This document shows positions 4,463 to 21,042 of a stretch of 35,896 nucleotides of DNA, piece after piece. The notes beneath the pieces were generated by a model. It was not told where the DNA came from and made no database searches. It worked only from the letters and a program-made list of their open reading frames with translations. A program made the translations under genes and the position numbers. The number at the start of each line of letters is the position of its first letter. Within the stretch, counting starts at the first letter, position 1. Location of the stretch: the IMG/VR virus record IMGVR_UViG_3300005573_000193, positions 1-35,896 of that record; one strand, 5' to 3'. The stretch comes from a virus. Taxonomy: Duplodnaviria > Caudoviricetes.

Positions 4463-5419
4463 ATGGCAGTAAATCCTGTAAGATTATCGGCAAAACATCA
4501 GCTGGCTATTGCTCTGGAAACTAGTCCCGGAGTAATGGAAACTCTGGACGAGGGCGATGTGCTCTTCATCCCGAACGAATTATCATTCAAAACAGAACTG
4601 GATCAAAAGGAACGGAAACTGGTCAAGCCTTTTCTTGGGGCAGACCCCCCTACTCCAGGTCTTAAAAAGTGCACCGTGAGCATAAGTCTTGATATGATTG
4701 GCTCTGGAACGCCTACAACGCCACCTCCGTGGGCAATCCTGATGACCTTGCTAGGTTTTAAGGGATCGGCAGGCACTAATAAATATACTTGGACGCTGGA
4801 AAGCACCCCAGCTATAGCTACCGCAACCGTCTGGTCAAACCGGGGCGGACTACGGCGTCGTGGAAGGGGCTTATGTGCGGTTTCTGGGAAAATTTCTGGC
4901 GAAGTTGGGAGACCTGCGGAGTTAAGCGTAGAGCTTCAAGGGGCTTATGATGGGTATGAGGACGCAGAGCCTTTTAGCCAAACCCTCCCTCGTCCAGTTC
5001 CACCTGTAGTCAATGCTGGAGCGTTCACGCTCGGAGGGTCATACTCTCCATTCATCAGCAAATGGGAGCTTACTATTGCAAACACTTTGGCGTGGAGGAT
5101 CAAGCCGGATGCGTCTTCATTGATTTATTTTACGGAGATTACATCCAGAAGATTTTCCGTAACGCTTGCACCAGAAATAGAAGCCCTCTCTACCCGTGAT
5201 TGGCTGGACTCTCTTGAAAGTATGACAGAGGAAGCGTTAGAGATCACGATAGGGTCAGAAGCTGGCAATAAGTTCAGGATTACGGCGCCGAATGCGGTAG
5301 TGGTAAAGGCTGGAGAGGAAAACGATGAAGAGGGCAAGATGACAGATGCAGTGGAGCTTTTGCTTACCCCATCATACGAGACCGGCGGGAATGACGAGAT
5401 TACTATAGAACAATTATAG
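4463..5419 (+). CDS. Major tail (tube) protein
   Basis: 318 aa beta-rich protein, N-terminal LAIALETSPG pattern, strong RBS; lies between terminator-like and chaperone/tape measure genes; no sheath gene seen. Confidence 0.8.
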   Translation: MAVNPVRLSAKHQLAIALETSPGVMETLDEGDVLFIPNELSFKTELDQKERKLVKPFLGADPPTPGLKKCTVSISLDMIGSGTPTTPPPWAILMTLLGFKGSAGTNKYTWTLESTPAIATATVWSNRGGLRRRGRGLCAVSGKISGEVGRPAELSVELQGAYDGYEDAEPFSQTLPRPVPPVVNAGAFTLGGSYSPFISKWELTIANTLAWRIKPDASSLIYFTEITSRRFSVTLAPEIEALSTRDWLDSLESMTEEALEITIGSEAGNKFRITAPNAVVVKAGEENDEEGKMTDAVELLLTPSYETGGNDEITIEQL

Positions 5420-6168: not shown

Positions 6169-8920
6169 CGAAGAGGAACTCAGGTTTATTATTAGCGCAG
6201 TTGATAATTTTAGCGTAACGCTGGAAAAATTCCAGACCAAGCTTAAACAACAAGATGCTGGCGTCAAATCTCTTTTCCCAACCTTCTCTGCTTTTGGAAA
6301 AGGCATTTCCTCTTTGACTTCAGCCATCACCGGCGTAATTAAACCCGCAATGATAGTGAGCGCAACCATTGCAGGATGGGCTTATTCTTTTGAAAAAGTT
6401 GCTGGAGCAGTATTGACAACCGGAGAGCGTTGGCAACGATTCAGAATGAGTCTTATCCAGTCGCTTGGCAGTGCAGAAGCGGCCGAAGAGGGGCTTAAGA
6501 TGGTTCAAAGAGCCGCTGAGAATATGTCCGAAACAGAAGAGACTGTAATTGCGGCTTTTGTCAGAATGGCTCCGATAATGCAAATGAATGAAAAAAGATT
6601 GCAAGGTCTATCTGGCGCGGCCGGTAGTTTCGGAATGAGTATGGAGCTAATGGCTGAACAAATGCACCGCTTTATCGTGGGTGGTATTGGAGCCGCAGAC
6701 TTGCTTCGGGAAAGGGGGGCATTTGTAGTTCTGCAACGCCAAGCGCAACAGCTTGGAATTCAGTGGGAGAAAATGAGTCGCCAGCAGAGGGAATTACTCG
6801 CCACTAAATTCATTGAGGAATATGCCGCCGCTGGAAGAATGGCTCTTTATACTTGGTCTGGGTCTTGGGCGGGGATTATAGATTATGTAGACAAGTTCAA
6901 GAAAATGGTAGCTGATGCTGGTTTCTATGATAAAATGGTCGGATTGACTAATGTTATATACGAAGAACTCAAGAAAGTATTTCAAACCGATAGCGTAAAA
7001 GAGCTTGCTAAAATGGTGTCCACTTTCCTTTGGGATACTGTCAAGATTGTGGGATACACTTGTGCATTCATTAAAGACGCTGTCGTTCTTATAAAGAATT
7101 ATATTTATGCCCATTTGATAAATCCAGTTAAAATAGCGGTGGACGCGTTGCTTCTTTCCATCTCATCTGCTATTGCCGGGGTCCTTACTGTGGCTAACAA
7201 GGTGGTTCAGCATCTTCCAGGCGTCTCTAAAGAATTTAAGAATTCTCTTGCTGGTATAACTCAAGAGTGGCAAGGGAAAATGAAAACAGCGGCAGGGATG
7301 TTAAAAGAAGAAACCGTCAACCAAATGGACCTTTTGCGAGGCGGTTTGCAAAGAGGGATGGGGGCGATGTATGATTTCTACGACATCACTAGTCAAGTGC
7401 CTGGAAAGATTAAAGAAGCCAGCGTGTTTATGGCGCAACAAGCAGATATAATCAAGAAAAACAGAGAAGAGACCGAAAAATTTCTGCGTGCACATGATAA
7501 AATCTACGACAGAGAGATGAAAAAACTGGACGAACTGAAGGCAAAAAAACAGATCACCGATGAAGAGTATGAGGCAGAGCATAGGAGGCTACTTGCTGAA
7601 CACTATAAGAGAGAAGAAGACGCGCGAGATAAAGATGTGAAGTCGCTTAAAGAACATCAAAGAGAGATGCAAGAGGCTTGGGAAAAATACTATAAAGTTG
7701 TTGAAGATTTAAGGACTCCAAAAGAAAAGCTGGAACAGGAATACAATGAGAAAATGATGGCGATTGATAGAGCAGAAGAGGTGGCGAAAGAGGAATTGGA
7801 GAAGGAAAGAGAAAAGGCTGAGAAGAGTGGAAAATTCAATGAAAAAGAGTTTAATGAAAAGCTTATCCAGTTGCAAAACGAATTTAATGAACAGCGCATT
7901 CGTTTAATAGAAAAATATGATAAAGAGAAGGCGGCGCTTTCAGAAAGAGAATATCAGGACGAATACGGGGATTTTCTCAGGCTCCACGATCAGCTTTTAG
8001 ACGAGCAAACGAGATACGAAGAAGAATACAAGAAAAATCTTGCTATTCTTGAGGCGGCTCAAAAGTCTTCTGATGAAACAATAGCTAAACAAGCCACTGA
8101 AGATTTGGTGAAATTAAATGCATTAAGAGAGCAAAAGATGCAGGAATTCTATGAGAAACAGCTTGCCGATATTGAAGCTATTCACGAGGATCTCAAATCG
8201 GAAGAGGAAAGACAACTGGATGAACAAGCGAAAGAACTAAAAAGGCGAATAGATACCTTGCAAGAGGCTCTGAAAGAGCCGACAAAATATCAAGGACTGA
8301 ACATAGAACAGACCAAAGCAGACCTTGATGCTCTTAATAAACAATATATTCTTGCTACCTCTAAAGGAATGAAAATATGGAACAAATATGCCGAGTCTAT
8401 TGATATTGTTTTTACCGCTATTGGCAAAACTTTCGCCAAAATGACGATGCAACTGCTTCGCGGGAAAGAAATAAGTGGAGAGAAATTATTAAAATTCCTT
8501 GTAAAAGAGCTTCGGGCGCAAGCTATAGCCAAAGGTCAAGAGCTGATCATTGACGGTGTCAAGACCGTCCTTATAGGGCTAGCTCAAATGGCGATAACTA
8601 AAGGCGCTGTCGGAGAGGATGCTGTAGCAATAGGTGGTGAAGAGATTGCTACGGGAACAGCGATGGCTGGGGGTGGTGTTCTGTTGGGCAATCTGGCTGG
8701 TCTAAAAGGTGGCAAAGGTGGCAAAGGTGGCGGTGGGGGCGGTGGTGCAGGTGGTTATACCGGTCCGACAGAAGAGGATAAAGGGCATCCACATCGGTCG
8801 GCGCATTATGTTTTCAAGGCGGGTGAAGGGATAGTGCTGAACGAGAGAGAGTTGACCAAGCGCATTCTTCGGCATACCCGCAAGGCATTCAGGTCTAATG
8901 TCACTGTGGAGGTTGTATGA
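6158..8920 (+). CDS. Tail tape measure protein
   Basis: 920 aa, N-terminal ELRFIISAVDNFS motif, long helical/coiled-coil composition, Gly-rich C-terminus, canonical position. Confidence 0.9.
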   Translation: MAVSEEELRFIISAVDNFSVTLEKFQTKLKQQDAGVKSLFPTFSAFGKGISSLTSAITGVIKPAMIVSATIAGWAYSFEKVAGAVLTTGERWQRFRMSLIQSLGSAEAAEEGLKMVQRAAENMSETEETVIAAFVRMAPIMQMNEKRLQGLSGAAGSFGMSMELMAEQMHRFIVGGIGAADLLRERGAFVVLQRQAQQLGIQWEKMSRQQRELLATKFIEEYAAAGRMALYTWSGSWAGIIDYVDKFKKMVADAGFYDKMVGLTNVIYEELKKVFQTDSVKELAKMVSTFLWDTVKIVGYTCAFIKDAVVLIKNYIYAHLINPVKIAVDALLLSISSAIAGVLTVANKVVQHLPGVSKEFKNSLAGITQEWQGKMKTAAGMLKEETVNQMDLLRGGLQRGMGAMYDFYDITSQVPGKIKEASVFMAQQADIIKKNREETEKFLRAHDKIYDREMKKLDELKAKKQITDEEYEAEHRRLLAEHYKREEDARDKDVKSLKEHQREMQEAWEKYYKVVEDLRTPKEKLEQEYNEKMMAIDRAEEVAKEELEKEREKAEKSGKFNEKEFNEKLIQLQNEFNEQRIRLIEKYDKEKAALSEREYQDEYGDFLRLHDQLLDEQTRYEEEYKKNLAILEAAQKSSDETIAKQATEDLVKLNALREQKMQEFYEKQLADIEAIHEDLKSEEERQLDEQAKELKRRIDTLQEALKEPTKYQGLNIEQTKADLDALNKQYILATSKGMKIWNKYAESIDIVFTAIGKTFAKMTMQLLRGKEISGEKLLKFLVKELRAQAIAKGQELIIDGVKTVLIGLAQMAITKGAVGEDAVAIGGEEIATGTAMAGGGVLLGNLAGLKGGKGGKGGGGGGGAGGYTGPTEEDKGHPHRSAHYVFKAGEGIVLNERELTKRILRHTRKAFRSNVTVEVV

Positions 8921-9663
8921 CAAGTCCAGCAAAATTCTGGCTTGAAAATCTTGTCCCGATGGCGACTATAACTGCCACTTCGGAGAATGGGGAGAACCTT
9001 GCGGATAATCTCAAAACTTGGCGCTCATATTTGATTTGGGAGGCAACATCGGGCGACGAGCAGACATTAAAATTTGTCTTCAATGAAAATGTTGCGCCAG
9101 AAGCCTGCCTGATTTACGGGTCAAACCTTAGCGGGAAAACGCTAACAGTTGCCTACTCTGACAACGATTTGGACTGGACAACTGTAGGGACTCTTAATGT
9201 AAATGCGCGTGGCTCTGGCTATCTGAATATCTCCACTGCAGGCGAGCATAAGTATTGGAAAATTATCATTCCGCCAGTTTCAGTTCCAGCGCAGATCGCT
9301 ATCGTTTATCTTGGCTCGGAAATAGAAGCTCCGACTTATTTTGAGGTTGGGAGCTTTGATCCCCTTGCCTATTCGGTGGAAGCCCGTGCTCTATGGAGTT
9401 TGGGCGGGAAACGGTTGGGAACGACTGAGAAAATTCGGAAGCGGAATTGGACATTGAGTTTCACTCAATTCCCTACCGCGTGGGTAGATACTTATTTTGA
9501 GAGATTTATGGACGCCGAAGCTATGCTGTGGTGCTGGGAGCCGGACGAGTATATCTCGGACATCTTTCTGGCATTCATAGTTCCAGACCAAAAGAGAACT
9601 GCTCCATTTTCGGGTCCGGGTAGACGAGATATGGTGATTGAATTGGAGGGAGAGTATGCCTGA
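8917..9663 (+). CDS. Putative distal tail protein with discoidin-like N-domain
   Basis: Immediately after the tape measure gene; VAYSDNDLDW and HKYWKIII motifs typical of F5/8-like folds. Confidence 0.6.
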   Translation: MTSPAKFWLENLVPMATITATSENGENLADNLKTWRSYLIWEATSGDEQTLKFVFNENVAPEACLIYGSNLSGKTLTVAYSDNDLDWTTVGTLNVNARGSGYLNISTAGEHKYWKIIIPPVSVPAQIAIVYLGSEIEAPTYFEVGSFDPLAYSVEARALWSLGGKRLGTTEKIRKRNWTLSFTQFPTAWVDTYFERFMDAEAMLWCWEPDEYISDIFLAFIVPDQKRTAPFSGPGRRDMVIELEGEYA

Positions 9664-12376
9664 TTTGAAATACTCCCCGTGTTGGTTGGTCAAGATTTTC
9701 CTGCCGTATTGCGCAAATACCTTTGGAGTATCCCCCTGCACTGCCACTGGGCAGATATGCTATTATACATACTTTACTTGCACTGATAAGACGCACTTTT
9801 CGCCAACTACCAGAGAGGTTCGGCTTTGCACGCCGAACTGGATTTATGCTGGCGTTGAGGGGTATTTGCCGTTGGTAGGTGAAGTTAATAATAACTCTGC
9901 GGAGTTAAATTATAATGATAATAGGCTTGAGTTCGCAGATTTGGACTTGATTTGCGCAGATGATGCCCCGCTTCCAAAAGCTAACCCTGACAAGAGCGTG
10001 TCCAGATTAGAGAACGCTGGAACTTATCTCCGAAATCTCTTTACCCGGCATAACAACTGGCATAAGGCAGAGATTGAGGTCTATTTTGGGGATGCTACAG
10101 ACCCGATTGAAAAATTTGAGAGGATATTTGTAGGCGTGCTTGAAGAGATTGAGTATCAGTCGGACTATGCGGTTCGGATTTCTGCTAAAGACATCTTTGG
10201 AAAAGAGAACGCCAAGAGCCATAAAAAGACAGACGATAAATGCACGCTTAAGGCAGACTATTCTGGTGGTCAGGTTCTGGAGCTTTATCACGGGCATAAG
10301 TTTGAGGAAGCTGGCATCGTTCTTGCGGACGGGAAATATATCAAATATAAAGGCAGGTCTGATGAAGGCGACCATTGGCATTTATTGAACTGTGCGTATT
10401 GTTTCGGAAGCTCTGGGACAATAACTGCAGGGACTAAAGTCCAGCTGGTTCTGGTTTATGAGCGTGATGGTGGGCATAGTGTAGGGAATGATAATAATAA
10501 GGGCTTCCCAGTTGATTGGTGCATAGTGGATTTGTTGGCGCGGAGTAAAATAAACCTACTTACCAGACTTGAATGGCGGGAAATGGACGCCACACTGGAT
10601 GGGGATATAACAGCCGATGCGACTACTCTGGTATTATCCAGCGCAACCGGCTTCCCGGATCAAGGTATTATTCGGATTGAGGATGAGATTATCATTTATA
10701 CCGCAAAGAGCGGAAACAATCTCTATTGGCCGGATAACCCTTCTGCGGGACAAGATGCCCCTTTATTCCATAAGCGTTTCAGGGGGGCTTGGGGATCAGA
10801 AAAGAAATCTCATTCCAGTGGCGCAAAGATTTATATCCCGCAGATCACTTTTAAGGCAAATCAGGCATTAACATCTTGGGAATTAAAGCGCAAGCTCTGG
10901 GAACAGAAGGAAATCTTGGACTTAATCAATGAAATTCAGGCTTGCACGATGGCGTATGTAGTGCAAAATTCGGCACATAACATTGAACTGAAGCCGTTAG
11001 CGCAACCCGCTCCCGGAGACTCGGTCGGTGAATTTACAGATGATATAGCGATTATGAGTGACCCTGCACCGGAATTGATAAACGACCAAGAAGAGAGAGA
11101 TACTGCGGTAGTATGTTTTTATAAGCCGGTTGCTGGTGAAGACGGGGATGATCCGGGTGAAACCCCGAAAAACTATTTACATCAGTATGTCTACGACGAC
11201 GGCTCTCTGAATAATGATAATTATTTCCCTGAGCGGAAGGAAAAAATTATTTTCGCCCCGTGGTTATGGCGTGAAACCGAAGTCTCTGCGATGGTTCAAC
11301 GATGGCACGCAAGATTTTCATTAGGGACAGAGAAGCTCCGAATAAATGTCCCTGCATTTGCGGCGGAGGGGTGGATAGGTGATTTTGTGCGAGTCACTAG
11401 CGCATACTTGCAAGGGGTAACCGGTGCGCCACTTAATCGGAGGCTATGCCAAATTATTAGTAGAGCGGATAAGGGGGACTCTGTTGAAATGGTAGTTGCT
11501 GATGTTCGCTTGACCAAGCGATATATGTATTGGGCTAAAGAGCATCCGACTCTAGCGCAGAATTTGTCAGAAACTGGAGAAGGCGAAGAGGTTTTAGTGC
11601 CTTTGATAAATCAGCCTAATTATAACTCTGCGATTTATTTTGGTAGCGGAGCTATGCGTGATTGTGAAACTATCGGACAGACTTTTACATTAACCGAAAA
11701 CACTCATCTCGGCAGGATCACAGTCAACATAGAACCATACAACAACCTCGCTACTATCTGGTTAAAGCTATATGATGCCAATATGAATTTATTAGCAACA
11801 GTGCAGTCTAATTCACAATATACTGGAGAATTTGATTTGGATATAGAGCTTAATCCTGGAACCTATCGTATGGAAATTTATCTGACAGGTTTTCCTTATC
11901 CGCCTTCAGATGAAGATGTTTATTTAGCTAATTATTCCAATGAAAATCCTTATACTGGCGGAGTGATGTATAGAGATAATTCCCCTCAAAACTCGGATGA
12001 TTTAGCGTTTTCTATTGAAAAACTTGAGCTTCAAGTGAATGTTCTAGTTCAGCTTAATGCGAATACATATCAAGATAGCGACTTAAATGCATCGGGAGTA
12101 ATCCAGATTGAAAATGAATTAATAAAATATACCGGGAAATCTCTGAATGGGTCAGTGCTTACTTTGACCGGGTGCACAAGAGGATGGAATGGCACTACGC
12201 CTGCATCTCATACCGCTGGACGCATAGTGGCGTTTCTGTATTGCTCGTTCACTGGGGCTTGCCAGAATGCGCACGGTTCTTGGTGTAATGATAAAGAAGG
12301 GTTGCATAGTGCAGGTTTGATCGGTGCAAATGGATGGCTTGACGGAGACCAAGATATGGCTTATTATTGGCAATAG
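9656..12376 (+). CDS. Tail tip/hub (central fibre) protein
   Basis: ~906 aa from ATG 9656 (RBS GGAGG); N-terminal C..TFGVSPC...CYYTYFTC motif; two copies of a G.I.IE.E.I.YT.KS...RG.WG....SH..G repeat domain. Confidence 0.7.
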   Translation: MPDLKYSPCWLVKIFLPYCANTFGVSPCTATGQICYYTYFTCTDKTHFSPTTREVRLCTPNWIYAGVEGYLPLVGEVNNNSAELNYNDNRLEFADLDLICADDAPLPKANPDKSVSRLENAGTYLRNLFTRHNNWHKAEIEVYFGDATDPIEKFERIFVGVLEEIEYQSDYAVRISAKDIFGKENAKSHKKTDDKCTLKADYSGGQVLELYHGHKFEEAGIVLADGKYIKYKGRSDEGDHWHLLNCAYCFGSSGTITAGTKVQLVLVYERDGGHSVGNDNNKGFPVDWCIVDLLARSKINLLTRLEWREMDATLDGDITADATTLVLSSATGFPDQGIIRIEDEIIIYTAKSGNNLYWPDNPSAGQDAPLFHKRFRGAWGSEKKSHSSGAKIYIPQITFKANQALTSWELKRKLWEQKEILDLINEIQACTMAYVVQNSAHNIELKPLAQPAPGDSVGEFTDDIAIMSDPAPELINDQEERDTAVVCFYKPVAGEDGDDPGETPKNYLHQYVYDDGSLNNDNYFPERKEKIIFAPWLWRETEVSAMVQRWHARFSLGTEKLRINVPAFAAEGWIGDFVRVTSAYLQGVTGAPLNRRLCQIISRADKGDSVEMVVADVRLTKRYMYWAKEHPTLAQNLSETGEGEEVLVPLINQPNYNSAIYFGSGAMRDCETIGQTFTLTENTHLGRITVNIEPYNNLATIWLKLYDANMNLLATVQSNSQYTGEFDLDIELNPGTYRMEIYLTGFPYPPSDEDVYLANYSNENPYTGGVMYRDNSPQNSDDLAFSIEKLELQVNVLVQLNANTYQDSDLNASGVIQIENELIKYTGKSLNGSVLTLTGCTRGWNGTTPASHTAGRIVAFLYCSFTGACQNAHGSWCNDKEGLHSAGLIGANGWLDGDQDMAYYWQ

Positions 12377-12387
12377 GGAGGTTTAAG

Positions 12388-12885
12388 ATGGGATGGCAAG
12401 ATATAGAGTTTAGTGAAATCGCGGCGGAAGCGGCCGCTTCCACTACAACGATGAACAAGATTAAAGGCAATCTGGAATACTGCAGAAAGCAATCAAAAGT
12501 CGGCTCTCTATTGTTATCAACTTATGATGAAAAAGCTTGCGCTTCTGGAACAGATTGGCAGAATGTTTATACCGATTATATGATTAGACTTCCCATTGAT
12601 GCGAAAAGTATCTCCGCAAGGATTGATTGTCAAATCACCCCAGAGAACGCGTCAGATCGTCAGATTAGGATTGGGCTTTATTACTCTGGCGGATGGAACA
12701 AAAACTCCAGCGCATACAACTTGGGCGGGGACGGTTGGCGAAAAGTTTTAATTGAGGATTTAGATGTTTCAGATATTCCTGCGGGCAACATCCTGATGCG
12801 CATCCAAATGAAGGCTAGCAATGGAAATCTCTGCTTTGTGCGGGGGGTGAATGTATGGATAAGCGATGCAAAGGAGAGTGGATGA
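12388..12885 (+). CDS. Putative minor tail protein
   Basis: ATG 12388 after GGGAGGT; beta-rich; last gene of the tail cluster. Confidence 0.55.
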   Translation: MGWQDIEFSEIAAEAAASTTTMNKIKGNLEYCRKQSKVGSLLLSTYDEKACASGTDWQNVYTDYMIRLPIDAKSISARIDCQITPENASDRQIRIGLYYSGGWNKNSSAYNLGGDGWRKVLIEDLDVSDIPAGNILMRIQMKASNGNLCFVRGVNVWISDAKESG

Positions 12886-13127
12886 TGATGCTTGAATTTA
12901 TTATTCTAATCGCAACTGCTGGGGTTACCGGTTTGGGCGCATTCCTCTGGTGGAAAATCAACGGTGCTGTGCAAAAAGAGGATTGCGAAAAAATGATGAA
13001 ATGCAATGATGAAAAACTTGACAAGCTCTTTGAGCGAACTTCCAGGTTTCAAGTTGACTTAGCGGAAACCAAAACTAATGTTGTCTGGATCAAGGAATTT
13101 TTAGAGAAGAATGGGAGACCCCATTGA
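12882..13127 (+). CDS. Small membrane protein (N-terminal TM + coiled coil), lysis-associated candidate
   Basis: Hydrophobic LEFIILIATAGVTGLGAFLWW followed by heptad-like region; upstream of the amidase. Confidence 0.6.
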   Translation: MMMLEFIILIATAGVTGLGAFLWWKINGAVQKEDCEKMMKCNDEKLDKLFERTSRFQVDLAETKTNVVWIKEFLEKNGRPH

Positions 13128-13152
13128 AAATTTTGTTCAGATGTGTTATTTT
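13124..13152 (+). promoter_or_regulatory. Possible sigma70 promoter
   Basis: TTGAAA-17 bp-TATTTT with TG extension; shares GATGTGTTAT with the promoter at 16948-16976. Confidence 0.5.
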
Positions 13153-13210
13153 TAAGTATTACCAGTTCTGCTGGATGATTATATTGAACTGAAAGGAGCA
13201 AAAAACCGAA

Positions 13211-13528
13211 ATGTCTCACGGGAAACAATTGTGGCTGGTCGGACAATTTCGTTGGGCAACAAAAACCCTGCCAGATAGGTGGGAGTTTCAGGGAGTATTT
13301 GACTCAAAAGATAAGGCAATCAAAGCCTGCAAAACTGAATTATATTTCATTGCCCCTCTTATTTTGAATAAAGAATATCCAGCGCGTCCGGTAAAGATGA
13401 AAGGGGCTTACTATCCATTATCCAAACATAGATTGACGCGGGGTAGATCAACGGCCGATCACCTGGCTCATACCCAGGGCAAGGTGGGTTCAACTCCCGC
13501 CCCCGCTATCAGAAAGGGGGATCAATGA
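13211..13528 (+). CDS. Hypothetical phage protein whose 3' end runs through the tRNA
   Basis: RBS AAGGAG; 105 aa; stop overlaps the amidase start (ATGA). Confidence 0.75.
   Translation: MSHGKQLWLVGQFRWATKTLPDRWEFQGVFDSKDKAIKACKTELYFIAPLILNKEYPARPVKMKGAYYPLSKHRLTRGRSTADHLAHTQGKVGSTPAPAIRKGDQ
13437..13508 (+). tRNA. tRNA-Met(CAT), initiator-like
   Basis: Cloverleaf: CGCGGGG/CCCCGCT acceptor, GATC/GATC D-stem, CCTGG/CCAGG anticodon stem with CTCATAC loop (CAT at 13469-13471), GTGGG-TTCAACT-CCCGC T-arm; no encoded CCA. Confidence 0.85.
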
Positions 13529-14064
13529 AAATAGTTATTGACCCGGGACACGGCGGAATAGACCCCGGAGCGGTGCATCTAACAATAAGAGAAGCTGATC
13601 TGAATTTGAAGCTTGCGCTTCAATTGCGCCGTGAACTTGATAATCAAGGTATAGAGAGCGTTCTAACAAGAGAGACTGACCGGGATTTGACACTTACTAA
13701 ACGATGCGAGATAGAGAATGAGGTCAAGCCAGATGCTTTTATCAGCATTCATCACAACTCGGCTTCCGACCCGAATGCAAAGGGGTGGGAGATTTTTTAT
13801 TATTCAGATAAGGGGCGAGAGCTTGCTGAATGTATTGCAGAACGATTGAAAATTATCTCTGATTTAACCAGCAGAGGGGTAAAGCACGAGAGTAAATCCC
13901 AGCACCCAAGCTTGTATGTTTTACATCATACAAAAGCTCCAGCTTGTCTAATAGAAGCTGGATTTATCACTAACTTCTTTGAATGCACTTTTCTGCAATC
14001 ACTTGACGGCAGAGAAAAAATGGCGCAAGCTATTGCAAGAGGGATAAGGGATTTTCTGGTATGA
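13525..14064 (+). CDS. N-acetylmuramoyl-L-alanine amidase (Amidase_3) endolysin
   Basis: IVIDPGHGG.DPGA, E at REA, FISIHHNS, PACLIEAGFITN catalytic motifs. Confidence 0.95.
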   Translation: MKIVIDPGHGGIDPGAVHLTIREADLNLKLALQLRRELDNQGIESVLTRETDRDLTLTKRCEIENEVKPDAFISIHHNSASDPNAKGWEIFYYSDKGRELAECIAERLKIISDLTSRGVKHESKSQHPSLYVLHHTKAPACLIEAGFITNFFECTFLQSLDGREKMAQAIARGIRDFLV

Positions 14065-14249
14065 GCAAGAAAAAAATAAGAGAGTGTCTTAAATGCGGGA
14101 AATTATTTATGAGTGAAGGAAACTGGAACCGGCTATGTGAAAGGTGCCGGAAAGAGAATAGTTTAATTTGGGGAGATATGTGCGATGAGAGAACGCTATC
14201 CAAAACGCTACCCCGCGTATTATCCCGTCTGGGACGCCAAATGGGGTAG
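14061..14249 (+). CDS. Small zinc-finger protein
   Basis: RECLKCGKLFMSEGNWNRLCERC; ATGA overlap. Confidence 0.7.
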   Translation: MSKKKIRECLKCGKLFMSEGNWNRLCERCRKENSLIWGDMCDERTLSKTLPRVLSRLGRQMG

Positions 14250-14400
14250 GACTGAAGGGAGGCGCTATATGACCTTCTGGCAACTGCAGTGGTATCGGGT
14301 CAAGAAATTTTTCGCTGATCCGGTTCTGCGTTTGCTAACCTTCATCGTGCTGTTCTTGATTATCATTCTTCTTGTTTTTCTGTATTGCGGAGGTGTTTGA
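14185..14400 (+). CDS. Small membrane protein
   Basis: C-terminal hydrophobic helix; RBS GGGGAG; stop overlaps the next ATG. Confidence 0.55.
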   Translation: MRERYPKRYPAYYPVWDAKWGRTEGRRYMTFWQLQWYRVKKFFADPVLRLLTFIVLFLIIILLVFLYCGGV

Positions 14401-14690
14401 TGGGTCTGCGCAGAGACCTGAATGATCTTGTGCGGGGTATGAATAATCGCTTGAGCATCAGCAGAACGCTTCTGCTGGTAGGTATAGGGCTAGTCTTTAT
14501 CTATACCACTCTTATATTGAGCAGGATTTTGAACCTTAAGCCAGAGTTTTTCGTGCAGGCTTTGACAGGTGCGGTGGCTTTACTTGGCGGGATCGCCGCT
14601 TTACTTGGTGGAATTTATGGATGGGGGAAGTATCTGGACAGAAAAAACGGAGGAACAGATGGGAAAAAAACCGGGAAAAACCGACCTTGA
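14400..14690 (+). CDS. Putative holin
   Basis: Two TM segments, basic C-terminus, RLSISR motif, RBS GGAGGT, near the endolysin. Confidence 0.6.
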   Translation: MGLRRDLNDLVRGMNNRLSISRTLLLVGIGLVFIYTTLILSRILNLKPEFFVQALTGAVALLGGIAALLGGIYGWGKYLDRKNGGTDGKKTGKNRP

Positions 14691-15093
14691 GTATTTGAAG
14701 CGTCATTGTCCGCACTCTCATAAGGATGCCCAGAAGGCAATCAGTGAATATCTTAAACTGCACGGATTTGCCGTGTTTCAGGTGGGTATTCACGGCGGGA
14801 TTACCATTGACCGGTTCGGGCGCAAGAAGAAAAATCAAGACGCTGGCGTCCCTGACCTGTTAGCAATAAACACCCGAGATATAGTTTTGGCGGGGATCGC
14901 ACGCCCGGCATTTACACTTGGCTTGATGATTGAGGTTAAGACGCCGAATGATAAACCATCCCCAGAGCAGAAGGCTTTTCTGGAAAGCTGGCGTTCAGTG
15001 CGAGAGGTCAAGACTGGAGTTGCCCGTTCAGTGGAAGATATAATCGCATTGCTGGAGACGCCACCATTTTGTGCGGAGCCGGAGGTTAAATGA
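14659..15093 (+). CDS. VRR-NUC family nuclease
   Basis: AGVPDLLA...IEVKTP..KPSPEQKAF...VARSVED motifs; ATG 14659 after GGAGG. Confidence 0.85.
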   Translation: MGKKPGKTDLEYLKRHCPHSHKDAQKAISEYLKLHGFAVFQVGIHGGITIDRFGRKKKNQDAGVPDLLAINTRDIVLAGIARPAFTLGLMIEVKTPNDKPSPEQKAFLESWRSVREVKTGVARSVEDIIALLETPPFCAEPEVK

Positions 15094-15630
15094 ATGAAAA
15101 TCCCTCTTCGGTTTAAGATTTATGCCGTCCTTTTTTCCTTCCTCTTTGGAGTCGCGGTCGGGATTTGGCTTGGCTGGAGCGGTTTTTTGCGGTTTTTCCC
15201 GCTACCAGAGCCAGTCCCGGCCGCGAATATAATCTGGAAAACTAAAACGATTACAGAGTTCAAGGATCGCTGGCGAACCAAAATAAAGCAGATACCGGGA
15301 CCCGAAAAGGTGGTGGAGAAGGTAGTGGAGAAAGAGGTGCCGGGACCAATCAGGACAGAGATCATCTATTTGAAGCCGGGAGAGCATCCGACTACCTTTC
15401 GGAGGTGGAGTTTTAATTCATTTGAGCTATTTGGCGGGGTAGGCGGGGCATATCAACCGCAGGGGGCTTCATTGGCATTTGGCGGGGCTTTAGAGGGTAG
15501 GTATAGACCGGTTTGTTTGAATGGCGCCCGTTTTTCAGGGTGTTTAGAGGTTAATGCGGGTGGGATGGCTTTGAATTATGGCATTACAGAGGCAAGAATA
15601 GGCATAGGAGGCGTTCTGGAATGGCGTTAA
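15094..15630 (+). CDS. Membrane-anchored protein, spanin-like candidate
   Basis: N-terminal TM, EKVVEKVVEKEV stalk, Gly/aromatic beta-strand C-terminus; lysis region. Confidence 0.45.
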   Translation: MKIPLRFKIYAVLFSFLFGVAVGIWLGWSGFLRFFPLPEPVPAANIIWKTKTITEFKDRWRTKIKQIPGPEKVVEKVVEKEVPGPIRTEIIYLKPGEHPTTFRRWSFNSFELFGGVGGAYQPQGASLAFGGALEGRYRPVCLNGARFSGCLEVNAGGMALNYGITEARIGIGGVLEWR

Positions 15631-16568
15631 GGTCTTTCCCTTATCCTGGGTCAAAAGCCAAGTTTATTGACCAGATTTTGCCACTTATTCCAAAACACGA
15701 ATACTATTTTGAGCCGTTTGGAGGGTCGGGTGCGGTGCTTTTGAATAAGCCCCAAGTCAGGGTTGAGCTTTTCAATGATTTGAATGGAGCGATTATATGC
15801 TTTTTCAGGGTGATGTCAGACCCGAAAAGATACCCAGAATTTGAGCAGAGGATTTTAAGACTTCCGGGTCCAGACCAAAAGACTTTTGATTGGGCGGTTA
15901 AGACTACAGAGGAAATGTCTGCAGATGAAATGGAAATAGCCGTTGCTTGGTATTATAGAATAACCAAAGCATATGCGCTGAAAGATAAAAAAATCTGTTC
16001 AGTCAGAAACCCCTTTAATATCCTTCCATCTCTACCCTCCCTTCATTTAAGATTGCGGACAGTGAGCTTCTATCAAATGGACGCAATGGAGTTTATTAAA
16101 AAATTCTGCTATAAGCGGAATAAAAGCGAACCAGATAATAACTCTTTCTGGTATATTGACCCACCTTATCCAGAAGAGGTGGTGCCAGAAGTCAAACAGC
16201 TTTATTTGGTTCAATTCACGAATGAAAATCATCGGGAGCTTTTAGAGTTTATCAACAGCAAAATTGATGAGGTTAAATTCTTGATTTCTGGGTTTCATTG
16301 TCCGCTCTATGATGAGATGTTATCGTTTGATAAAGGCTGGAGGCTTAAAGAGGTCAAAACCCCATCCAGGATGTCTTGGCTAAAGAATAATGGCGGTCAG
16401 GCGAAGTTCAATACCGAGTGTCTCTGGTATAATTATCCTGTAGAACCCAACAGAGAGGAAGGTATGTATGGTAGATGTGATTGTGGTGGCGAGTGGATAA
16501 TGAAAATGGGCGAGTGGGTTTGTTCTAACTGCGGGGCTAAACAAGAAGAAATTAGTTATATGGAATAG
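15621..16568 (+). CDS. DNA adenine methyltransferase (Dam/D12 class), orphan
   Basis: FPYPGSK, YFEPFGGSG (SAM binding), NDLN, YIDPPY, TECLWYNY; C-terminal CxC...CxxC extension. Confidence 0.92.
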   Translation: MALRSFPYPGSKAKFIDQILPLIPKHEYYFEPFGGSGAVLLNKPQVRVELFNDLNGAIICFFRVMSDPKRYPEFEQRILRLPGPDQKTFDWAVKTTEEMSADEMEIAVAWYYRITKAYALKDKKICSVRNPFNILPSLPSLHLRLRTVSFYQMDAMEFIKKFCYKRNKSEPDNNSFWYIDPPYPEEVVPEVKQLYLVQFTNENHRELLEFINSKIDEVKFLISGFHCPLYDEMLSFDKGWRLKEVKTPSRMSWLKNNGGQAKFNTECLWYNYPVEPNREEGMYGRCDCGGEWIMKMGEWVCSNCGAKQEEISYME

Positions 16569-16571
16569 AGT

Positions 16572-16648
16572 GCCGATAGTGCGCCTATAATGAGCCGACT
16601 GCGTGCCGATGGTGCGCCGATGGTGCGCCGATGGTGCGCCGAATAAGA
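16572..16648. repeat. Seven in-phase 11-bp units (core GCCGATGGTGC), iteron-like
   Basis: GCC starts at 16572, 16583, 16594, 16605, 16616, 16627, 16638; three exact copies at 16605-16637. Confidence 0.9.
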
Positions 16649-16673
16649 GGGGGGGGCGGATATATAGGGGGGG

Positions 16674-16722
16674 TAATAAATAATAATAATAATAATAATA
16701 TAATATAATAATAATATAATAT
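16674..16722. repeat. Pure A/T tract with (TAA)n
   Basis: About 49 bp without G or C, following two G-runs. Confidence 0.9.
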
Positions 16723-16856
16723 CCCGCATGTATATATAAGCAGGAATGATAATTTTAGCATAAAATTTATATTAGATTTTTTTAATCTTGGTGGGGGTGG
16801 CGGGATAAGGTTTTGACCCCGTATTTACCCCTTGCGTTATGAAAAAATACTAAAAA

Positions 16857-16897
16857 TTTGTAATCTGGATTACAAAAAATAAGCTAAATTATTGATT
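16857..16897. promoter_or_regulatory. Operator-like palindrome and IHF-consensus site
   Basis: TTTGTAATC-TG-GATTACAAA (16857-16876); minus-strand AATCAATAATTTA (16885-16897) fits WATCAANNNNTTR. Confidence 0.5.
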
Positions 16898-16947
16898 TTT
16901 AAGGGAAAAAAATTTTTTCAATTTTAGAAAAAAACGGCTAAAAATTC

Positions 16948-16976
16948 TTGCGGTTGCCTTGCGGATGTGTTATATT
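16948..16976 (+). promoter_or_regulatory. Early sigma70 promoter
   Basis: TTGCGG-17 bp-TATATT with TG extension and upstream A/T tracts. Confidence 0.7.
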
Positions 16977-16994
16977 AAGGGTGTAAAGTAAAAA

Positions 16995-17020
16995 GGGTGC
17001 AACGCCCGGATCTTTAACAA
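16995..17020 (+). promoter_or_regulatory. Hairpin + boxA-like antitermination motif
   Basis: GGGTG-CAA-CGCCC hairpin then GATCTTTAACAA (E. coli rrn boxA TGCTCTTTAACA), about 20-45 nt downstream of the -10 box. Confidence 0.65.
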
Positions 17021-17282
17021 ACGCAAGCGCAAAAAACCGCAACGAACGGCGCAAGCCCGCGGTAATGCTTATGGTCTTTGATATATACGGGAAATGATAA
17101 AGTGGATAAAGCGCAACCGGCAATGAGTGGCTATAAAAACCGCTTGCAAGTCCTTGAACCGAAACCGGGCGCAACGCCTGGCAGGGATCGGATGCCCGAA
17201 AAAAAAGCCGGCCAGAAAATCGGCTTCCCCGGCCGAAAAACCTGGGCGCAAAAGTTGGAAATCAAATCCCGTCAAAAGCAAG

Positions 17283-17626
17283 TTCAATCCCTCCCTGATG
17301 CGCTCAATGAGCGGATCAATCAAACCAAAGAGGGAGGTAAAGAGAGATGAAACTGAAACCGAGAGAGATGAGAGAAAGACAGGTGATCTATCTGCTGGAC
17401 CTGATTGATGAAGCCAGGACCGCACGAATGCAGGACCCGGACAAGTCCTATTTAGTAGAGGACCTTGATCCGGGCTGTTTAATGTTCTGGTGCAAAAATG
17501 CTATTGAGGAATGCGGTCAAACTGGATGCGCGGACTCTCCCGGATGTGGGGGAGTCCCCGAATGTTTTAAGATGATTATATGATCTATCGGACGCACTCT
17601 ATTGAGCGCGTCCGGGAGGGATTGAA
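17283..17626. repeat. Inverted repeat pair 1 enclosing ORF 17347..17583
   Basis: 17283-17308 pairs with 17601-17626: 24 Watson-Crick, 1 G-U, 1 mismatch. Confidence 0.9.
17347..17583 (+). CDS. Early hypothetical protein (Cys-rich C-terminus)
   Basis: RBS AGGGAGGT; 78 aa. Confidence 0.75.
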   Translation: MKLKPREMRERQVIYLLDLIDEARTARMQDPDKSYLVEDLDPGCLMFWCKNAIEECGQTGCADSPGCGGVPECFKMII

Positions 17627-17638
17627 AAAAGACTCCCA

Positions 17639-18079
17639 CCCCCTTATTCAAGCCGCCCGCAAATTCCAAAAGGGAGGAAAAAAATGACGAAAAAAACCGA
17701 GAATGTAAAGAATGTAAAAACCGAGCAAACTCCAAAACCTTATTCTGTTGAGGATGCACTGGCAAAGATGATTGCCAAAGCTCAGCTGGAAAAGGTGAAA
17801 CAAGAGCTGATTTCAAAGGCTCTTGAAGCAATAAACAAAAACAAGGATGCTATTGAGAGCACCTTGAACGAATTGCTCGCACTAGAAAAGCGAGCAATTG
17901 CGTTTGAGACCGAGACGGCGAAAAAAGCAGACCTGCTATTTGAAAAATTAGCAGGTCTAGGGGTGGATAAAAATACCGCTCTTCGGTGGGTTGACGATCA
18001 ACTCGCCGAAGAAGAAGAAGAAGAGACAGAGCAAGAGTAAAGAGGTAAAAAATCTAACCGGGCGGCTTGAATAAGGGGG
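17639..18079. repeat. Inverted repeat pair 2 enclosing ORF 17684..18040
   Basis: CCCCCTTATTCAAGCCGCCCG (17639-17659) is the perfect reverse complement of 18059-18079. Confidence 0.95.
17684..18040 (+). CDS. Early coiled-coil protein with acidic tail
   Basis: RBS AGGGAGG; 118 aa; ends AEEEEEETEQE. Confidence 0.85.
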   Translation: MTKKTENVKNVKTEQTPKPYSVEDALAKMIAKAQLEKVKQELISKALEAINKNKDAIESTLNELLALEKRAIAFETETAKKADLLFEKLAGLGVDKNTALRWVDDQLAEEEEEETEQE

Positions 18080-18080
18080 A

Positions 18081-18356
18081 GCCCTATTCCCTGCGATGGG
18101 GGCAAAAAAACCGAAGGGAGGAAAAAAGATGAAAAAAACAATAAAAAAAGATTTGATAGAGTGGTTCTTGACATTAGATGAATTGGACAGAAACCTGAGC
18201 ATCCTGCAAAGTAAAGGTGCCTCAGCTTCAGAAAAAGACAAAGCGTTTCGGAAATTAAAACGCATTTATAAAAAGCTGTCAGATGCCCCTGCAGATATTG
18301 AACTCTTGGTAGTTAGATAAACAATTATTAACCGCCCCCATCGCAGAGGATAGGGT
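18081..18356. repeat. Inverted repeat pair 3 enclosing ORF 18129..18320
   Basis: 18081-18103 pairs with 18334-18356: 20 Watson-Crick, 2 G-U, 1 mismatch. Confidence 0.9.
18129..18320 (+). CDS. Early hypothetical protein
   Basis: ATG 18129 after AGGGAGG; 63 aa. Confidence 0.75.
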   Translation: MKKTIKKDLIEWFLTLDELDRNLSILQSKGASASEKDKAFRKLKRIYKKLSDAPADIELLVVR

Positions 18357-18402
18357 ATAACCCCTTTTAATGAAAAATGGAAAGAAAGGAAGGAGAAAAA
18401 AG

Positions 18403-18669
18403 ATGAAAGTGGTAAAAGAGCTATTCAATTGCGGGCATGTTATTGACAACTGCCCGTATTGTCAAAGACCGACAGATGGACATACCAAAGTTATGGTCTT
18501 TGACGATGGAACGATGAGCGTCTTCTCGCACTGCCAAGTCTGCGGACTTGGCACGGTTGCAGATCACGAGCCAGCTAATTTCACTACGCTGGCTCGGCAT
18601 TTTCATTATCAAGAAGACGCAATTAAATTAGCCGGCAAACTCGGGTTGCCTATTAGTGGAGAAGGATGA
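18403..18669 (+). CDS. Early zinc-ribbon protein
   Basis: ATG 18403 after AAGGAG; CPYC and CQVC motifs. Confidence 0.75.
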   Translation: MKVVKELFNCGHVIDNCPYCQRPTDGHTKVMVFDDGTMSVFSHCQVCGLGTVADHEPANFTTLARHFHYQEDAIKLAGKLGLPISGEG

Positions 18670-18695
18670 AAAAGCTATCTCTATCCTCTCTTTGG

Positions 18696-18731
18696 GCTGG
18701 GCGGGAGTGCTATTACGCATTCCCGCCCGGT
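18696..18731 (+). other. Intergenic 15-bp hairpin without U-tail
   Basis: GCTGGGCGGGAGTGC / GCATTCCCGCCCGGT with G-U pairs. Confidence 0.7.
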
Positions 18732-18814
18732 AAAGATGATTGGACTGGAAGGGTCAACCTTCCCGGAGAGCCGACCGAAGAGGCAAAGCCGGGAGACCGG
18801 CAAGGAGGACTAAA

Positions 18815-19135
18815 ATGGGCAAGAAACATTTTTTTGTGGAGATCGTGACCTATATGCCAGACGGGTGATACGGAGACCCGCCCTATATAGACCACTGCCA
18901 TCTATCATATATCCCGGCCTCCGCTGCAGAGGCGGGCATATATGTTGGAGAGCCGGTAGGGTTCCATATCGGGCGCGCGCATCGGACGAGCCCAGTCTGG
19001 GATGTTGTCTCGGACTCATCTGGGACTCGGGTTTGGTTTGATACAGATCGGTTTGACTGGGACAGTCCAGAGGTGCTAAAAAATCTACCCACTAGGGCAG
19101 GGAAGGAGGCGCTAAAATGCACTGGACGCAATTAA
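18815..19135 (+). pseudogene. 107-codon frame interrupted by an in-frame TGA
   Basis: RBS AAGGAGG, ATG 18815, TGA at 18866-18868, frame then open to TAA 19133-19135 and overlapping the next gene start. Confidence 0.7.
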
Positions 19136-19623
19136 AAGAGCAATATCGGCGGGAAGCATATCAAAAGTATGAGCAAAGTCAAGCTCTCTTGCGGGAATTA
19201 AAGCCCATCGGGAGAGTCAACGAGTGGGGAGAGATTTTCGGGGTGGAATTGAAGCCGGGCTGGGTATCTGCCCAGATTGCGGGACAGATGTGGATTTTCA
19301 AGAAAAAGGGGTTTGACCAGAAAAAAGCGGAGCTTGCTGATGCTCTCTGGCAAGAGTGCCAGAGGCTTTTGACAGAGGCGGCTAAATACGGCTTTACAAT
19401 ACCAAAGCCAGGATGCACGACTGGGCGAGGGCGCAACTACCTCGCCTCCCTCCAGTGGCACTATGAGCAAGGCTTGCTGAATGAAGAAGAGCAAGCCTAC
19501 TACTGGAAGGAAATGAACTTCTGGGCGGATAACCCCGGCGCAAGCTATGGAGTTATGCAGGAAGATGGGACGCTCAAACCCATCTATTCAAAATTAAATC
19601 CAAGAAGCGGGGAGGTAAAATGA
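19117..19623 (+). CDS. Hypothetical protein
   Basis: 168 aa, RBS AAGGAGG. Confidence 0.8.
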   Translation: MHWTQLKEQYRREAYQKYEQSQALLRELKPIGRVNEWGEIFGVELKPGWVSAQIAGQMWIFKKKGFDQKKAELADALWQECQRLLTEAAKYGFTIPKPGCTTGRGRNYLASLQWHYEQGLLNEEEQAYYWKEMNFWADNPGASYGVMQEDGTLKPIYSKLNPRSGEVK

Positions 19624-19796
19624 GAAGCGATGAGACTACTCTCAAAGAGCTAGCTGATAGTCTTGGGTTCAAGGCTATCTTCTGGCGTCCAGATTTACTG
19701 GAGCTCCAAAAGGGCGAAATAGCCAAGACCTTTAATAGCATAGGTCTGGCTATAATTTATCTTGTAGGCTTCTATGATGGGAGGAATGATGGATAG
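19620..19796 (+). CDS. Hypothetical protein (58 aa, not in ORF track)
   Basis: RBS GGAGGT, ATGA overlap, MRSDETTLKELADSLGFKAIFWRPD... Confidence 0.7.
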   Translation: MRSDETTLKELADSLGFKAIFWRPDLLELQKGEIAKTFNSIGLAIIYLVGFYDGRNDG

Positions 19797-19992
19797 GAAG
19801 GATTTGTTGAGCGTAACGGAGGTCGCCCGGTTTTTCAATACCGGGAGATATACAATCATCAACTGGATACAGCAAGGGAAGCTTTCCGCGGTCAAAGAGG
19901 GAGACAAAATAGTCGGCATTTCTAGGAAAGCTGTTGCCAGATTTGTGATGGTTTATGGAAAAGGGGAGGATGAAAATGGAAATACTGACTGA
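19786..19992 (+). CDS. Excisionase-like/HTH_17 DNA-binding protein
   Basis: LLSVTEVARFFNTGRYTIINWIQQGKLSAVK motif. Confidence 0.85.
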   Translation: MMDRKDLLSVTEVARFFNTGRYTIINWIQQGKLSAVKEGDKIVGISRKAVARFVMVYGKGEDENGNTD

Positions 19993-20095
19993 TTTTATAT
20001 TTATTTGCGTGTTAGCTGTTGCGATGTTGATAACCTTTGCCATCATTGAGGGGATCATTGAGTTTATTTTAGATTGTTTCTGGAGGCAAGAATGA
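19970..20095 (+). CDS. Small membrane peptide (41 aa, not in ORF track)
   Basis: Hydrophobic FIFICVLAVAMLITFAII; stop overlaps nuclease ATG 20092. Confidence 0.55.
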   Translation: MKMEILTDFIFICVLAVAMLITFAIIEGIIEFILDCFWRQE

Positions 20096-21042
20096 CCCGT
20101 AAGGAATTGATTGAACAGTTGCGGGCACGCGGTATTGAAAAAATCTGGGGGCGTGGGCTGTCTACCAGAACAAAAGCAGAACTTCTGGAGTATTTAGCCC
20201 ACATTGAAGCGGGGACTACGATCCGACATCTGAGTTATAGTCAGCTGATAGATTTTCAGATATGTGGTCTCCGCTATTATTTTAAGCGGGTGGACCCGAA
20301 CGCCCCGAAATTCCCTGCGTCAGGTAGGATGATGTTTGGGAAGGCTTATGATTACGGGGTGTCAGTTGGGTTAGAAGATAAACAGCAAACTGGCAATGAT
20401 CCCCCCGTTGATCTAATGCTGGATGCTTTTAAGCAAGCTTGGGACAATCCCGACCAAGATGTGGATTGGACTGGAGAGGATAAGTCTTGGTTAGAGGCTC
20501 AAGGGATAGAGCTAGTTGCGCTCTATCGGGACGGGCTAATACCTGACATTATCCCGTTAGCGGTTCAAGATGAATTCAGTATCACTTTTTCTAACCGGGA
20601 CTATCAACTAATGGTAATCCCTGACTTAGAAGCGGAGCTTTCAAAAGAGGTTCACATCATAGACCATAAGACAGGGATGACCGCTCCGGGTGAATATGAA
20701 GCAGAAGTGTCCGAGCAATTAACCTGCTACGCGCTAGCATATCAAGTCAAGACTGGAGAGCTTCCTGACAAGGTGGCTATACATAAAGCGGTTGCGTTGC
20801 GGAAAGCCCCGCGATCTACACTGCCCCGGTATAAGACGATCAAGGAAACAGACCAGGGCTTTATAGGGATTTCCACTATTGAAAGCAAGCGGACTCCAGA
20901 CAGGATTAAGCGATACCTGAAGACGATGGAGATAACTATCCGATTGATACAAGAGGGTATATTTCCACCCGCTCGGAGTGGAGCGTGGCCGTGCACGCCG
21001 GAAGCGTGCGAATACTGGCAATACTGCCATACAAACTTTTGA
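20092..21042 (+). CDS. PD-(D/E)XK RecB/Cas4-like exonuclease with N-terminal Rho-N-like motif
   Basis: HLSYSQL...C, IPD...IIDHKTG, QLTCYALAY, C....CEYWQYC; adjacent to the recombinase. Confidence 0.88.
   Translation: MTRKELIEQLRARGIEKIWGRGLSTRTKAELLEYLAHIEAGTTIRHLSYSQLIDFQICGLRYYFKRVDPNAPKFPASGRMMFGKAYDYGVSVGLEDKQQTGNDPPVDLMLDAFKQAWDNPDQDVDWTGEDKSWLEAQGIELVALYRDGLIPDIIPLAVQDEFSITFSNRDYQLMVIPDLEAELSKEVHIIDHKTGMTAPGEYEAEVSEQLTCYALAYQVKTGELPDKVAIHKAVALRKAPRSTLPRYKTIKETDQGFIGISTIESKRTPDRIKRYLKTMEITIRLIQEGIFPPARSGAWPCTPEACEYWQYCHTNF

Follow-up and report, generated by a model that had tools for sequence, protein, structure and literature searches.

In the rrn operons of bacteria, a boxB-boxA element follows the promoter and the leader and trailer of the transcript pair in a helix of more than 17 bp (PMC10250234). 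The boxB-boxA(-boxC) element confers antitermination, and the leader-trailer helices enclosing 16S and 23S rRNA are cut by RNase III (PMC10250234, PMC11404451, PMC8632103). It has been proposed that the Nus complex delivers the rRNA leader to its distant complement (PMC8632103), and the rRNA stems of Aquifex have been described as unusually stable (PMC3074117).

In phages, the RNase III sites of T7 are local hairpins lying between genes, which give messages with 3' hairpins rather than a clamp joining the 5' and 3' ends. Five RNase III signals are described in T7 early mRNA (PMC3867540), and RNase III processing has also been recorded for the early mRNA of Bacillus phage SP82 (cited in PMC4838370). 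Pairing that controls a message is likewise described elsewhere: both untranslated ends of the Bacillus subtilis hbs mRNA pair over 14 bp, affecting nuclease access and modulating RNase Y (PMC5737220), and type I toxin mRNAs such as that of AapA3 have metastable SD-hiding hairpins (PMC6733600). In the literature covered, mostly open-access main texts, no paper was found on gene-enclosing stems in phage mRNA.

A hot-spring phage and its first early genes

The window analysed here comprises a whole tailed-phage contig of 35,896 bases. The contig is classed as a linear fragment, its completeness estimated at 45%, and both runs in which it occurs are labelled as hot springs metagenome. All recognisable genes lie on the + strand and encode terminase, portal, capsid, tail, an amidase endolysin, a Dam-type methylase, RecT, an exonuclease and a DnaC-like loader. 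The best terminase relatives are at most 37% identical, the contig has no close kin, and the amidase endolysin points to a bacterial host. Three stem-enclosed genes, here termed cargo genes, head the early block, with an AT-rich gap upstream and recombination and replication genes downstream:

17347..17583, + strand: cargo gene 1, 78 aa, Cys-rich C-terminus, no family
17684..18040, + strand: cargo gene 2, 118 aa, helical, acidic tail, no relative
18129..18320, + strand: cargo gene 3, 63 aa, predicted two-helix hairpin, no family

Gene 1 gave no match in Pfam, PHROG, NCBIfam or PADLOC and only Atlas matches below 0.9, and the sole match of gene 2 among 1.84 billion representatives was gene 2 itself. 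A weak profile match of gene 2 to Csn2 (E 3e-4) was rejected as likely coiled-coil noise. The structure model of gene 3 is a plain helical hairpin, and neither profile, Atlas nor structure comparison provided a usable lead on the function of the cargo. To judge by their position, these genes would serve host takeover or anti-defence.

Several other features of the contig deserve mention. A tRNA with a CAT anticodon (13437-13508, + strand; ARAGORN tRNA-Met, Rfam E 1.7e-7), the sole match in an Rfam scan of 12000-21000, lies just 5' of the endolysin gene. This tRNA has a C.A mismatch as its first acceptor pair and shares positions with the 3' end of the listed ORF 13211-13528. Part of a 731-aa LamG/tail gene (3155-3534) recurs as a diverged second copy (80-97%) at the contig end (35511-35896), and this duplication is not a terminal repeat. 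The stretch 16585-16725, in the gap 5' of the putative early promoter, contains short tandem repeats, first GCCGATGGTGC-like units and then runs of AAT, and assemblies break there. Beyond the cargo genes, a 106-codon frame with a good ribosome site (18815-19135, + strand) is interrupted by a single TGA at codon 18, present also in an identical copy of the locus (L003), and may be a broken gene or a case of read-through. Immediately 5' of that ribosome site stands a GCCGG-GAGA-CCGGC tetraloop hairpin (18788-18801, + strand); the motif recurs in another phage, L002, and 5' of a homolog of ORF 18403 on another contig, and it may mark a point at which co-occurring phages exchange genes.

Gene-enclosing stems

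Each cargo gene is bracketed by its own pair of complementary arms:

17283-17308 with 17601-17626, + strand: arms of stem 1, 26 bp, one U.C and one G-U
17639-17659 with 18059-18079, + strand: arms of stem 2, 21 bp, perfect
18081-18103 with 18334-18356, + strand: arms of stem 3, 23 bp, two G-U and one C.A

The coordinates and lengths of these arms (26, 21 and 23 bp), the gaps of 12 and 1 nt between successive stems and the content of the loops, each with one AGGGAGG site and one ORF (17347-17583, 17684-18040 and 18129-18320), are as the first-pass annotation of this DNA had given them. The stems enclose 230-399 nt, the arm pairs differ in sequence among the three, the 3' arm of stem 1 contains a GGGAGG copy of the ribosome site, and the 5' arm of stem 3, separated from stem 2 by a single nucleotide, might stack on that stem. 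In an ungapped inverted-repeat scan of the whole window, with partners within 1000 nt, the arm pairs scored 22, 21 and 18 and were the three best inverted repeats of the contig, the next scoring 14. Shuffled sequence, named in the first-pass annotation as the control for inverted-repeat density, never reached 18, either in 500 dinucleotide shuffles of 16980-18800 or in 30 block shuffles of the whole window (highest score 16), and a chance origin of the arm pairs is rejected on these controls. The gene-enclosing arm pairs are a real feature. The intergenic gaps at the cargo genes (100, 88 and 82 nt) are far wider than those of the 19 other neighbouring gene pairs listed (-19 to 33 nt), indicating that the phage spends sequence on the stems.

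Repeats of this kind might act in the DNA, as invertible or excisable cassettes or as single-strand DNA structures shuffled by the RecT/exonuclease pair. The arrangement of one gene per module is suggestive of this, as are a RecT-family annealase and a PD-(D/E)XK exonuclease 2-3 kb downstream of the stems and the swapping of early genes among co-occurring phages (L002 shares ORF 19117 only). However, the arm pairs are all different and so offer no shared recombination site, and the arms are without flanking target duplications and without promoter hexamers. No integrase or invertase occurs among the 52 proteins scanned, the contig being a fragment. A contig of run X1 spans 16732-18422, including all six arms, without a joint, and a second assembly is 100% identical over 2541 nt. 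Inversion or excision at the arms, which the first-pass annotation had also considered, is listed in the DNA contigs of neither run, contigs being apt to drop rare variants. The different arms and the absence of joints from these contigs argue against its suggestion of a modular cassette format at the DNA level, and action of the repeats in DNA is very improbable.

The same annotation had taken the G-U pairs as a hint at RNA. Three of the five non-Watson-Crick positions are G-U on the + strand, but the count carries little strand information, because one G-U is terminal and the C.A is a G-U on the - strand, leaving two against one inside the stems. Duplex energies for the + and - strands are -45.0 and -41.0 kcal/mol for stem 1, -44.4 and -44.4 for stem 2, and -43.7 and -42.7 for stem 3. 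Pairing in the transcript, as earlier proposed, is nevertheless predicted by folding up to 75 C. Folding of 16984-18420 predicted that stem 2 stays closed from 37 to 75 C, as do stem 1 in its outer half and stem 3 in its inner half. Pair probabilities at 65 C were 0.8 or more for stem 2 and, except at its first pair, for the outer half of stem 1, while those of the inner half of stem 3 were 0.9. Stem 2 retained values of at least 0.8 up to 75 C. The inner half of stem 1 had 0.4 at 37 C and 0.8-0.9 at 65-75 C. An 11-bp inner clamp is predicted to stay closed at 65 C, with mean pair probabilities of 0.87, 0.97 and 1.0 for stems 1, 2 and 3. Three local hairpins were also found:

17296..17320, + strand: local hairpin, alternative to the inner half of stem 1, 5' side (17283-17350: z -2.6, 2 of 200 shuffles)
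17589..17614, + strand: local hairpin, alternative to the inner half of stem 1, 3' side (17575-17630: z -4.7, 0 of 200 shuffles)
18696..18731, + strand: local hairpin of 15-20 bp, after gene 18403-18669 (z -6.75, 0 of 200 shuffles)

The first two are similar imperfect palindromes, and it could be argued that the arms or these look-alike hairpins of gene 1 are binding sites of an autoregulating phage protein, for example the Cys-rich gene 1 product, with the long-range pairing as a by-product. However, the two palindromes have spacers of different length (3 and 4 nt), no such pair of hairpins occurs at stems 2 and 3, which also have no sequence in common with stem 1, and no DNA- or RNA-binding family was found for the cargo proteins; the proposal is accordingly regarded as improbable. 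The third hairpin overlaps a short ORF (18666-18848), has no T run and is not terminator-like on the + strand. It probably lies in the same transcript as the stems and is a candidate processing or protective hairpin of the T7 type.

Between the 5' arms and the start codons of genes 1, 2 and 3 lie 38, 24 and 25 nt, and 17, 18 and 13 nt separate the respective stops from the 3' arms. Distances of this order clear the footprints of ribosomes, leaving initiation and termination free. Enclosing stems also bring both ends of a unit together, as would suit excision and ligation into circular mRNAs in the manner of archaeal pre-rRNAs. Against this, none of the stems contains a bulge-helix-bulge, no RNA ligase is present among the 52 proteins scanned, and the host indicated by the amidase endolysin is bacterial; the first two findings speak against the circularisable mRNAs entertained in the earlier annotation, and the circular form can be given hardly any weight.

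Promoter-like site and boxA

Upstream of stem 1, the leader contains three elements in series:

16948..16976, + strand: promoter-like site, -35 TTGCGG, 17-nt spacer, extended -10 (TG-T-TATATT), AT-rich upstream tract
16995..17007, + strand: 5-bp hairpin in a boxB-like position directly 5' of boxA, predicted at 37 and 65 C
17009..17020, + strand: rRNA-type boxA, GATCTTTAACAA, a hybrid of the B. subtilis and E. coli consensus

With its -35 at 16948 and its extended -10 at 16971, the promoter-like site has a predicted start near 16983-16985. It has 8 of 12 consensus matches, where five sites have 9, and the top upstream AT fraction (0.9) among the 15 listed, and we infer that it is the early promoter. 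The boxA lies about 25 nt past this predicted start and right behind the 5-bp hairpin, which alone is not significant (z -0.53).

The boxA, compared with the B. subtilis and E. coli consensus sequences (PMC13753749), is the only GHTCTTTAANA match of the window. A comparable match appeared in 19 of 5000 shuffles of the 299-nt leader; genome-wide, a match of this type is not rare (0.48 expected, 39 of 100 shuffles), and the pattern was widened after the site was seen. The identical 12-mer was found 74-131 nt 5' of the 16S start motif in at least 26 loci of about 22 bacterial genomes, a count made without a scrambled-motif control; the genomes include Gammaproteobacteria, Saccharibacteria, Campylobacterota and two Chloroflexota. 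Since the 12-mer stands before real 16S rRNA, GATCTTTAACAA is a natural rRNA boxA. The spacers of 12 and 1 nt that precede stems 2 and 3 contain no second boxA, even with up to 3 mismatches allowed. Between boxA and stem 1 runs a 260-nt leader (17021-17282, + strand) with several small hairpins and A runs and no Rfam match.

The association of boxA with long-range stems was also examined in viral contigs, with 120 loci per motif, of which 58 and 69 remained when those with less than 1000 nt downstream or with duplicate starts were dropped. A -10 hexamer and boxA were followed by a long-range stem in 2 of the 58 loci, against 1 of the 69 for a scrambled motif. The total matches of the two motifs are alike (about 270 for boxA and 230 for the scrambled motif), suggesting that chance matches dominate and that the motif alone does not predict the stem design. 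One locus of the control set, L289, has within 1.3 kb of the motif a 24-bp inverted repeat that encloses a 360-nt ORF, 13 nt past its stop, and is followed by a second copy of the 3' arm. This may be another gene-enclosing stem or a REP-like repeat.

Comparison with rrn operons and cultured phages

As in an rrn operon, a promoter (putative here), a small hairpin and a boxA precede products that are enclosed singly in helices of more than 17 bp. In contrast to rrn, the window encloses protein-coding genes with strong ribosome sites, its three helices stand back to back and there is one boxA; the loops hold ORFs and gave no Rfam match to rRNA. The locus would work like an rrn operon but is not one.

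As comparators, the first 8-10.5 kb of the GenBank records of SP6, T5 and T7 were scanned. In SP6 (L127, 655-1546), exact E. coli-type boxA sequences at 655 and 925 are each followed by a stem, at 674-920 (18 bp, gene 1) and at 940-1520 (30 bp, genes 2-4); at 1535 there is another boxA-like site, the third, which is of the same type as that in the window. In T5 (L126, 4680-6289), boxA-like sites at 4989 and 5381 stand before stems of 28 and 30 bp that enclose gene 008 and hegG, and annotated gene 009 overlaps one arm. T7 (L128) has a boxA-like site at 812, but its first 8 kb contain no long-range stem with a score of 15. The early or pre-early regions of SP6 and T5 thus resemble the window in having boxA followed by gene-enclosing stems of 18-30 bp, and the clearance of start and stop codons in SP6 (19 and 28 nt before the start, 18 and 13 nt after the stop) matches that of the window. 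They differ from the window in that its stems are G+C-rich and abutting, its stems 2 and 3 lack a boxA of their own and its first stem is predicted to hide the ribosome site of its gene. Stem G-C is 50-67% in the window versus 37-40% in SP6 and T5, as would be expected for hot-spring temperature.

The analogy to pre-rRNA drawn in the first-pass annotation is strengthened both by the boxA near a promoter-like site and by the boxA and enclosing stems of SP6 and T5. That annotation knew of no described phage equivalent; no paper on one was found in the mostly open-access literature, but the scan places the same layout in cultured SP6 and T5.

T7 and SP82 offer another parallel, as in both a polycistronic early transcript is divided by the host double-strand RNase into stabilised messages, as would happen here. 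Unlike the T7 sites, the three stems of the window enclose genes rather than separate them, and 18696-18731 is the only local candidate. The hbs mRNA also resembles the window in the pairing of its two untranslated ends and the effect on nuclease access; it differs as a 14-bp helix of a single host gene that modulates RNase Y, with neither a boxA nor an array (PMC5737220).

Possible RNase III cleavage

RNase III acts on helices of 11 bp at minimum and about 22 bp in full (PMC1540722), and at 21-26 bp the stems are of the size that this rule describes, with at least 11 bp beside the cut and about 22 bp in total. The base-pair pattern of E. coli RNase III in vivo has A-U at D/D' and B/B' and G-C at A/A' in the proximal box (PMC6212723). 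Against this pattern, which is that of E. coli and may not be that of the host, each stem scored at best 4 of 6, compared with 5 and 6 in SP6 and 5 and 5 in T5. A score of 4 of 6 is reached by at least 95% of shuffles, and the share of shuffles that do not exceed 4 is 20%, 44% and 72% for stems 1, 2 and 3 (jointly about 0.06 by multiplication). If anything, the E. coli pattern would appear to be avoided in the stems, in a test of low power, as SP6 and T5 also fail to beat their own shuffles. Long distances between paired cuts are infrequent in E. coli RNase III targets outside rRNA (PMC6212723). Cleavage of the three stems by RNase III would have about even odds.

Ribosome site of gene 1

Folding of the nascent gene 1 RNA predicts that CCCUCCC of the 5' arm (17283-17308) pairs with the ribosome site with a probability of 0.91-0.92, dropping to 0.0 once the final 11 nt of the 3' arm have been transcribed. 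The local hairpin is predicted to bring the 5' arm and the ribosome site together while 7 nt at the 5' end of the arm stay free as a toehold. At 65 C this masking was matched by 14 of 300 shuffled arms and by 1 of 300 genome pieces drawn at random, and at 37 C by 34 and 2 of 300, respectively. For genes 2 and 3, 100 and 51 of 300 arm shuffles mask as well at 65 C, placing the masking at the level of composition, and the gene 3 ribosome site is unmasked at 37 C. All these values come from equilibrium folding, in which competition by ribosomes is ignored. A switch that responds to completion of the message is therefore a predicted lead for gene 1 only. Such a switch would fit the boxA, because untranslated nascent RNA needs antitermination, and Nus complexes can repress translation themselves (PMC5725501). 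As with the SD-hiding hairpins of the type I toxin AapA3 (PMC6733600), translation of gene 1 is predicted to be blocked during transcription; unlike in such toxins, the end-to-end helix of the window would switch translation on, no antisense antitoxin was seen and there is no sign that the cargo is a toxin.

These predictions bear on a reading in which the helices form and are left uncut, serving as clamps or insulators in the intact transcript and gating translation through an SD-hiding 5' arm, which is compatible with use of the boxA. The masking of gene 1 and its loss after the 3' arm speak for it, together with the two local hairpins that leave the toehold, the GGGAGG copy in the 3' arm and the weak RNase III pattern in the stems, and it has precedents in co-transcriptional SD-hiding hairpins (PMC6733600) and in the uncut 5'/3'-UTR helix that controls decay of hbs (PMC5737220). 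However, masking is not specific at genes 2 and 3, masking to 0.36 or less at 65 C also occurs in 5 of 26 phage control genes (26 of the 33 starts tried had the motif), the arms of SP6 and T5 do not mask their ribosome sites, and equilibrium folding leaves the ribosome out of account. An uncut clamp is thus possible, if rather unlikely.

Search for related loci

In viral contigs, none of the candidate stretches reached through RecT (0 of 5), cargo gene 2 (0 of 15), ORF 19117 (0 of 29) or the RecT alignment (0 of 17) was confirmed as related, nor was any of 30 candidate loci in genome contigs. Among 325 candidates in metagenome contigs, three were confirmed, these being the window itself, its identical 2541-nt copy and phage L002, which shares ORF 19117 and is without gene-enclosing stems. 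An arm 15-mer matched 83 viral loci, with the partner arm or any likeness to the window in none of them, the shared junction motif occurred in 13 loci unrelated to the window, and blastn gave no match to the locus in 50,697 annotated phages. No diverged homologous locus was found for leader/trailer covariation, the only other copy being identical. In L002 itself, a co-occurring phage, two early genes begin with the same 30-nt ribosome-site leader (8445-8475 and 9295-9325) in place of stems that enclose them, and a long AGATCC/GGATCT repeat palindrome lies at 7946-8032.

A proposed pre-rRNA mimic among the early genes

The best reading of the locus is that the first operon is a pre-rRNA mimic, with boxA and leader-trailer helices, and the main rival is the uncut clamp or completion switch. 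That it is such a mimic, probably cut by RNase III into end-clamped messages, is judged somewhat better supported than its negation. In the mimic, host RNA polymerase would quite probably start near 16984, with NusB/S10 loaded on the boxA; by analogy with rrn, this would shield the partly untranslated early RNA from termination and help the distant arms to pair. The transcript would fold into three gene-closing helices. Each arm pair would close once its 3' arm is made and, as arms that end 24-38 nt before the start and begin again 13-18 nt after the stop allow, stay closed during translation of the loop, a prediction that is held with high confidence. For gene 1 only, the 5' arm is predicted to hide the ribosome site until displaced by the 3' arm. 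Host RNase III would then release single-gene messages with their ends kept paired. With about even odds, the cut would be staggered and spare some 11 bp of G+C-rich inner helix as a clamp protecting both ends, so that early messages would be stable at hot-spring temperature.

In its most extended form, the proposal has the phage running its first genes on the rRNA transcription machine of the host with translation licensed by completion: boxA would load the Nus complex, the 5' arm would hide the ribosome site, and the 3' arm would displace it through the toehold and clamp the ends, giving heat-stable closed-loop messages as the thermophile version of an undescribed design that spans SP6 and T5. 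As a whole this is unlikely and is put forward as speculation.

Use of boxA with leader-trailer helices for protein-coding genes was not found in print in the mostly open-access literature covered. The presence of the same layout in SP6 and T5 makes the idea testable in E. coli or Salmonella. If true, phages have taken over the full set of pre-rRNA elements, antitermination at boxA as well as leader-trailer helices, for protein-coding early genes, which would explain the fast production and the stability of early messages, here at hot-spring temperature. The layout would also mark the orphan genes that are expressed first as candidate host-takeover or anti-defence factors, and end-clamped, completion-gated messages would offer a compact design for stable expression in thermophiles.
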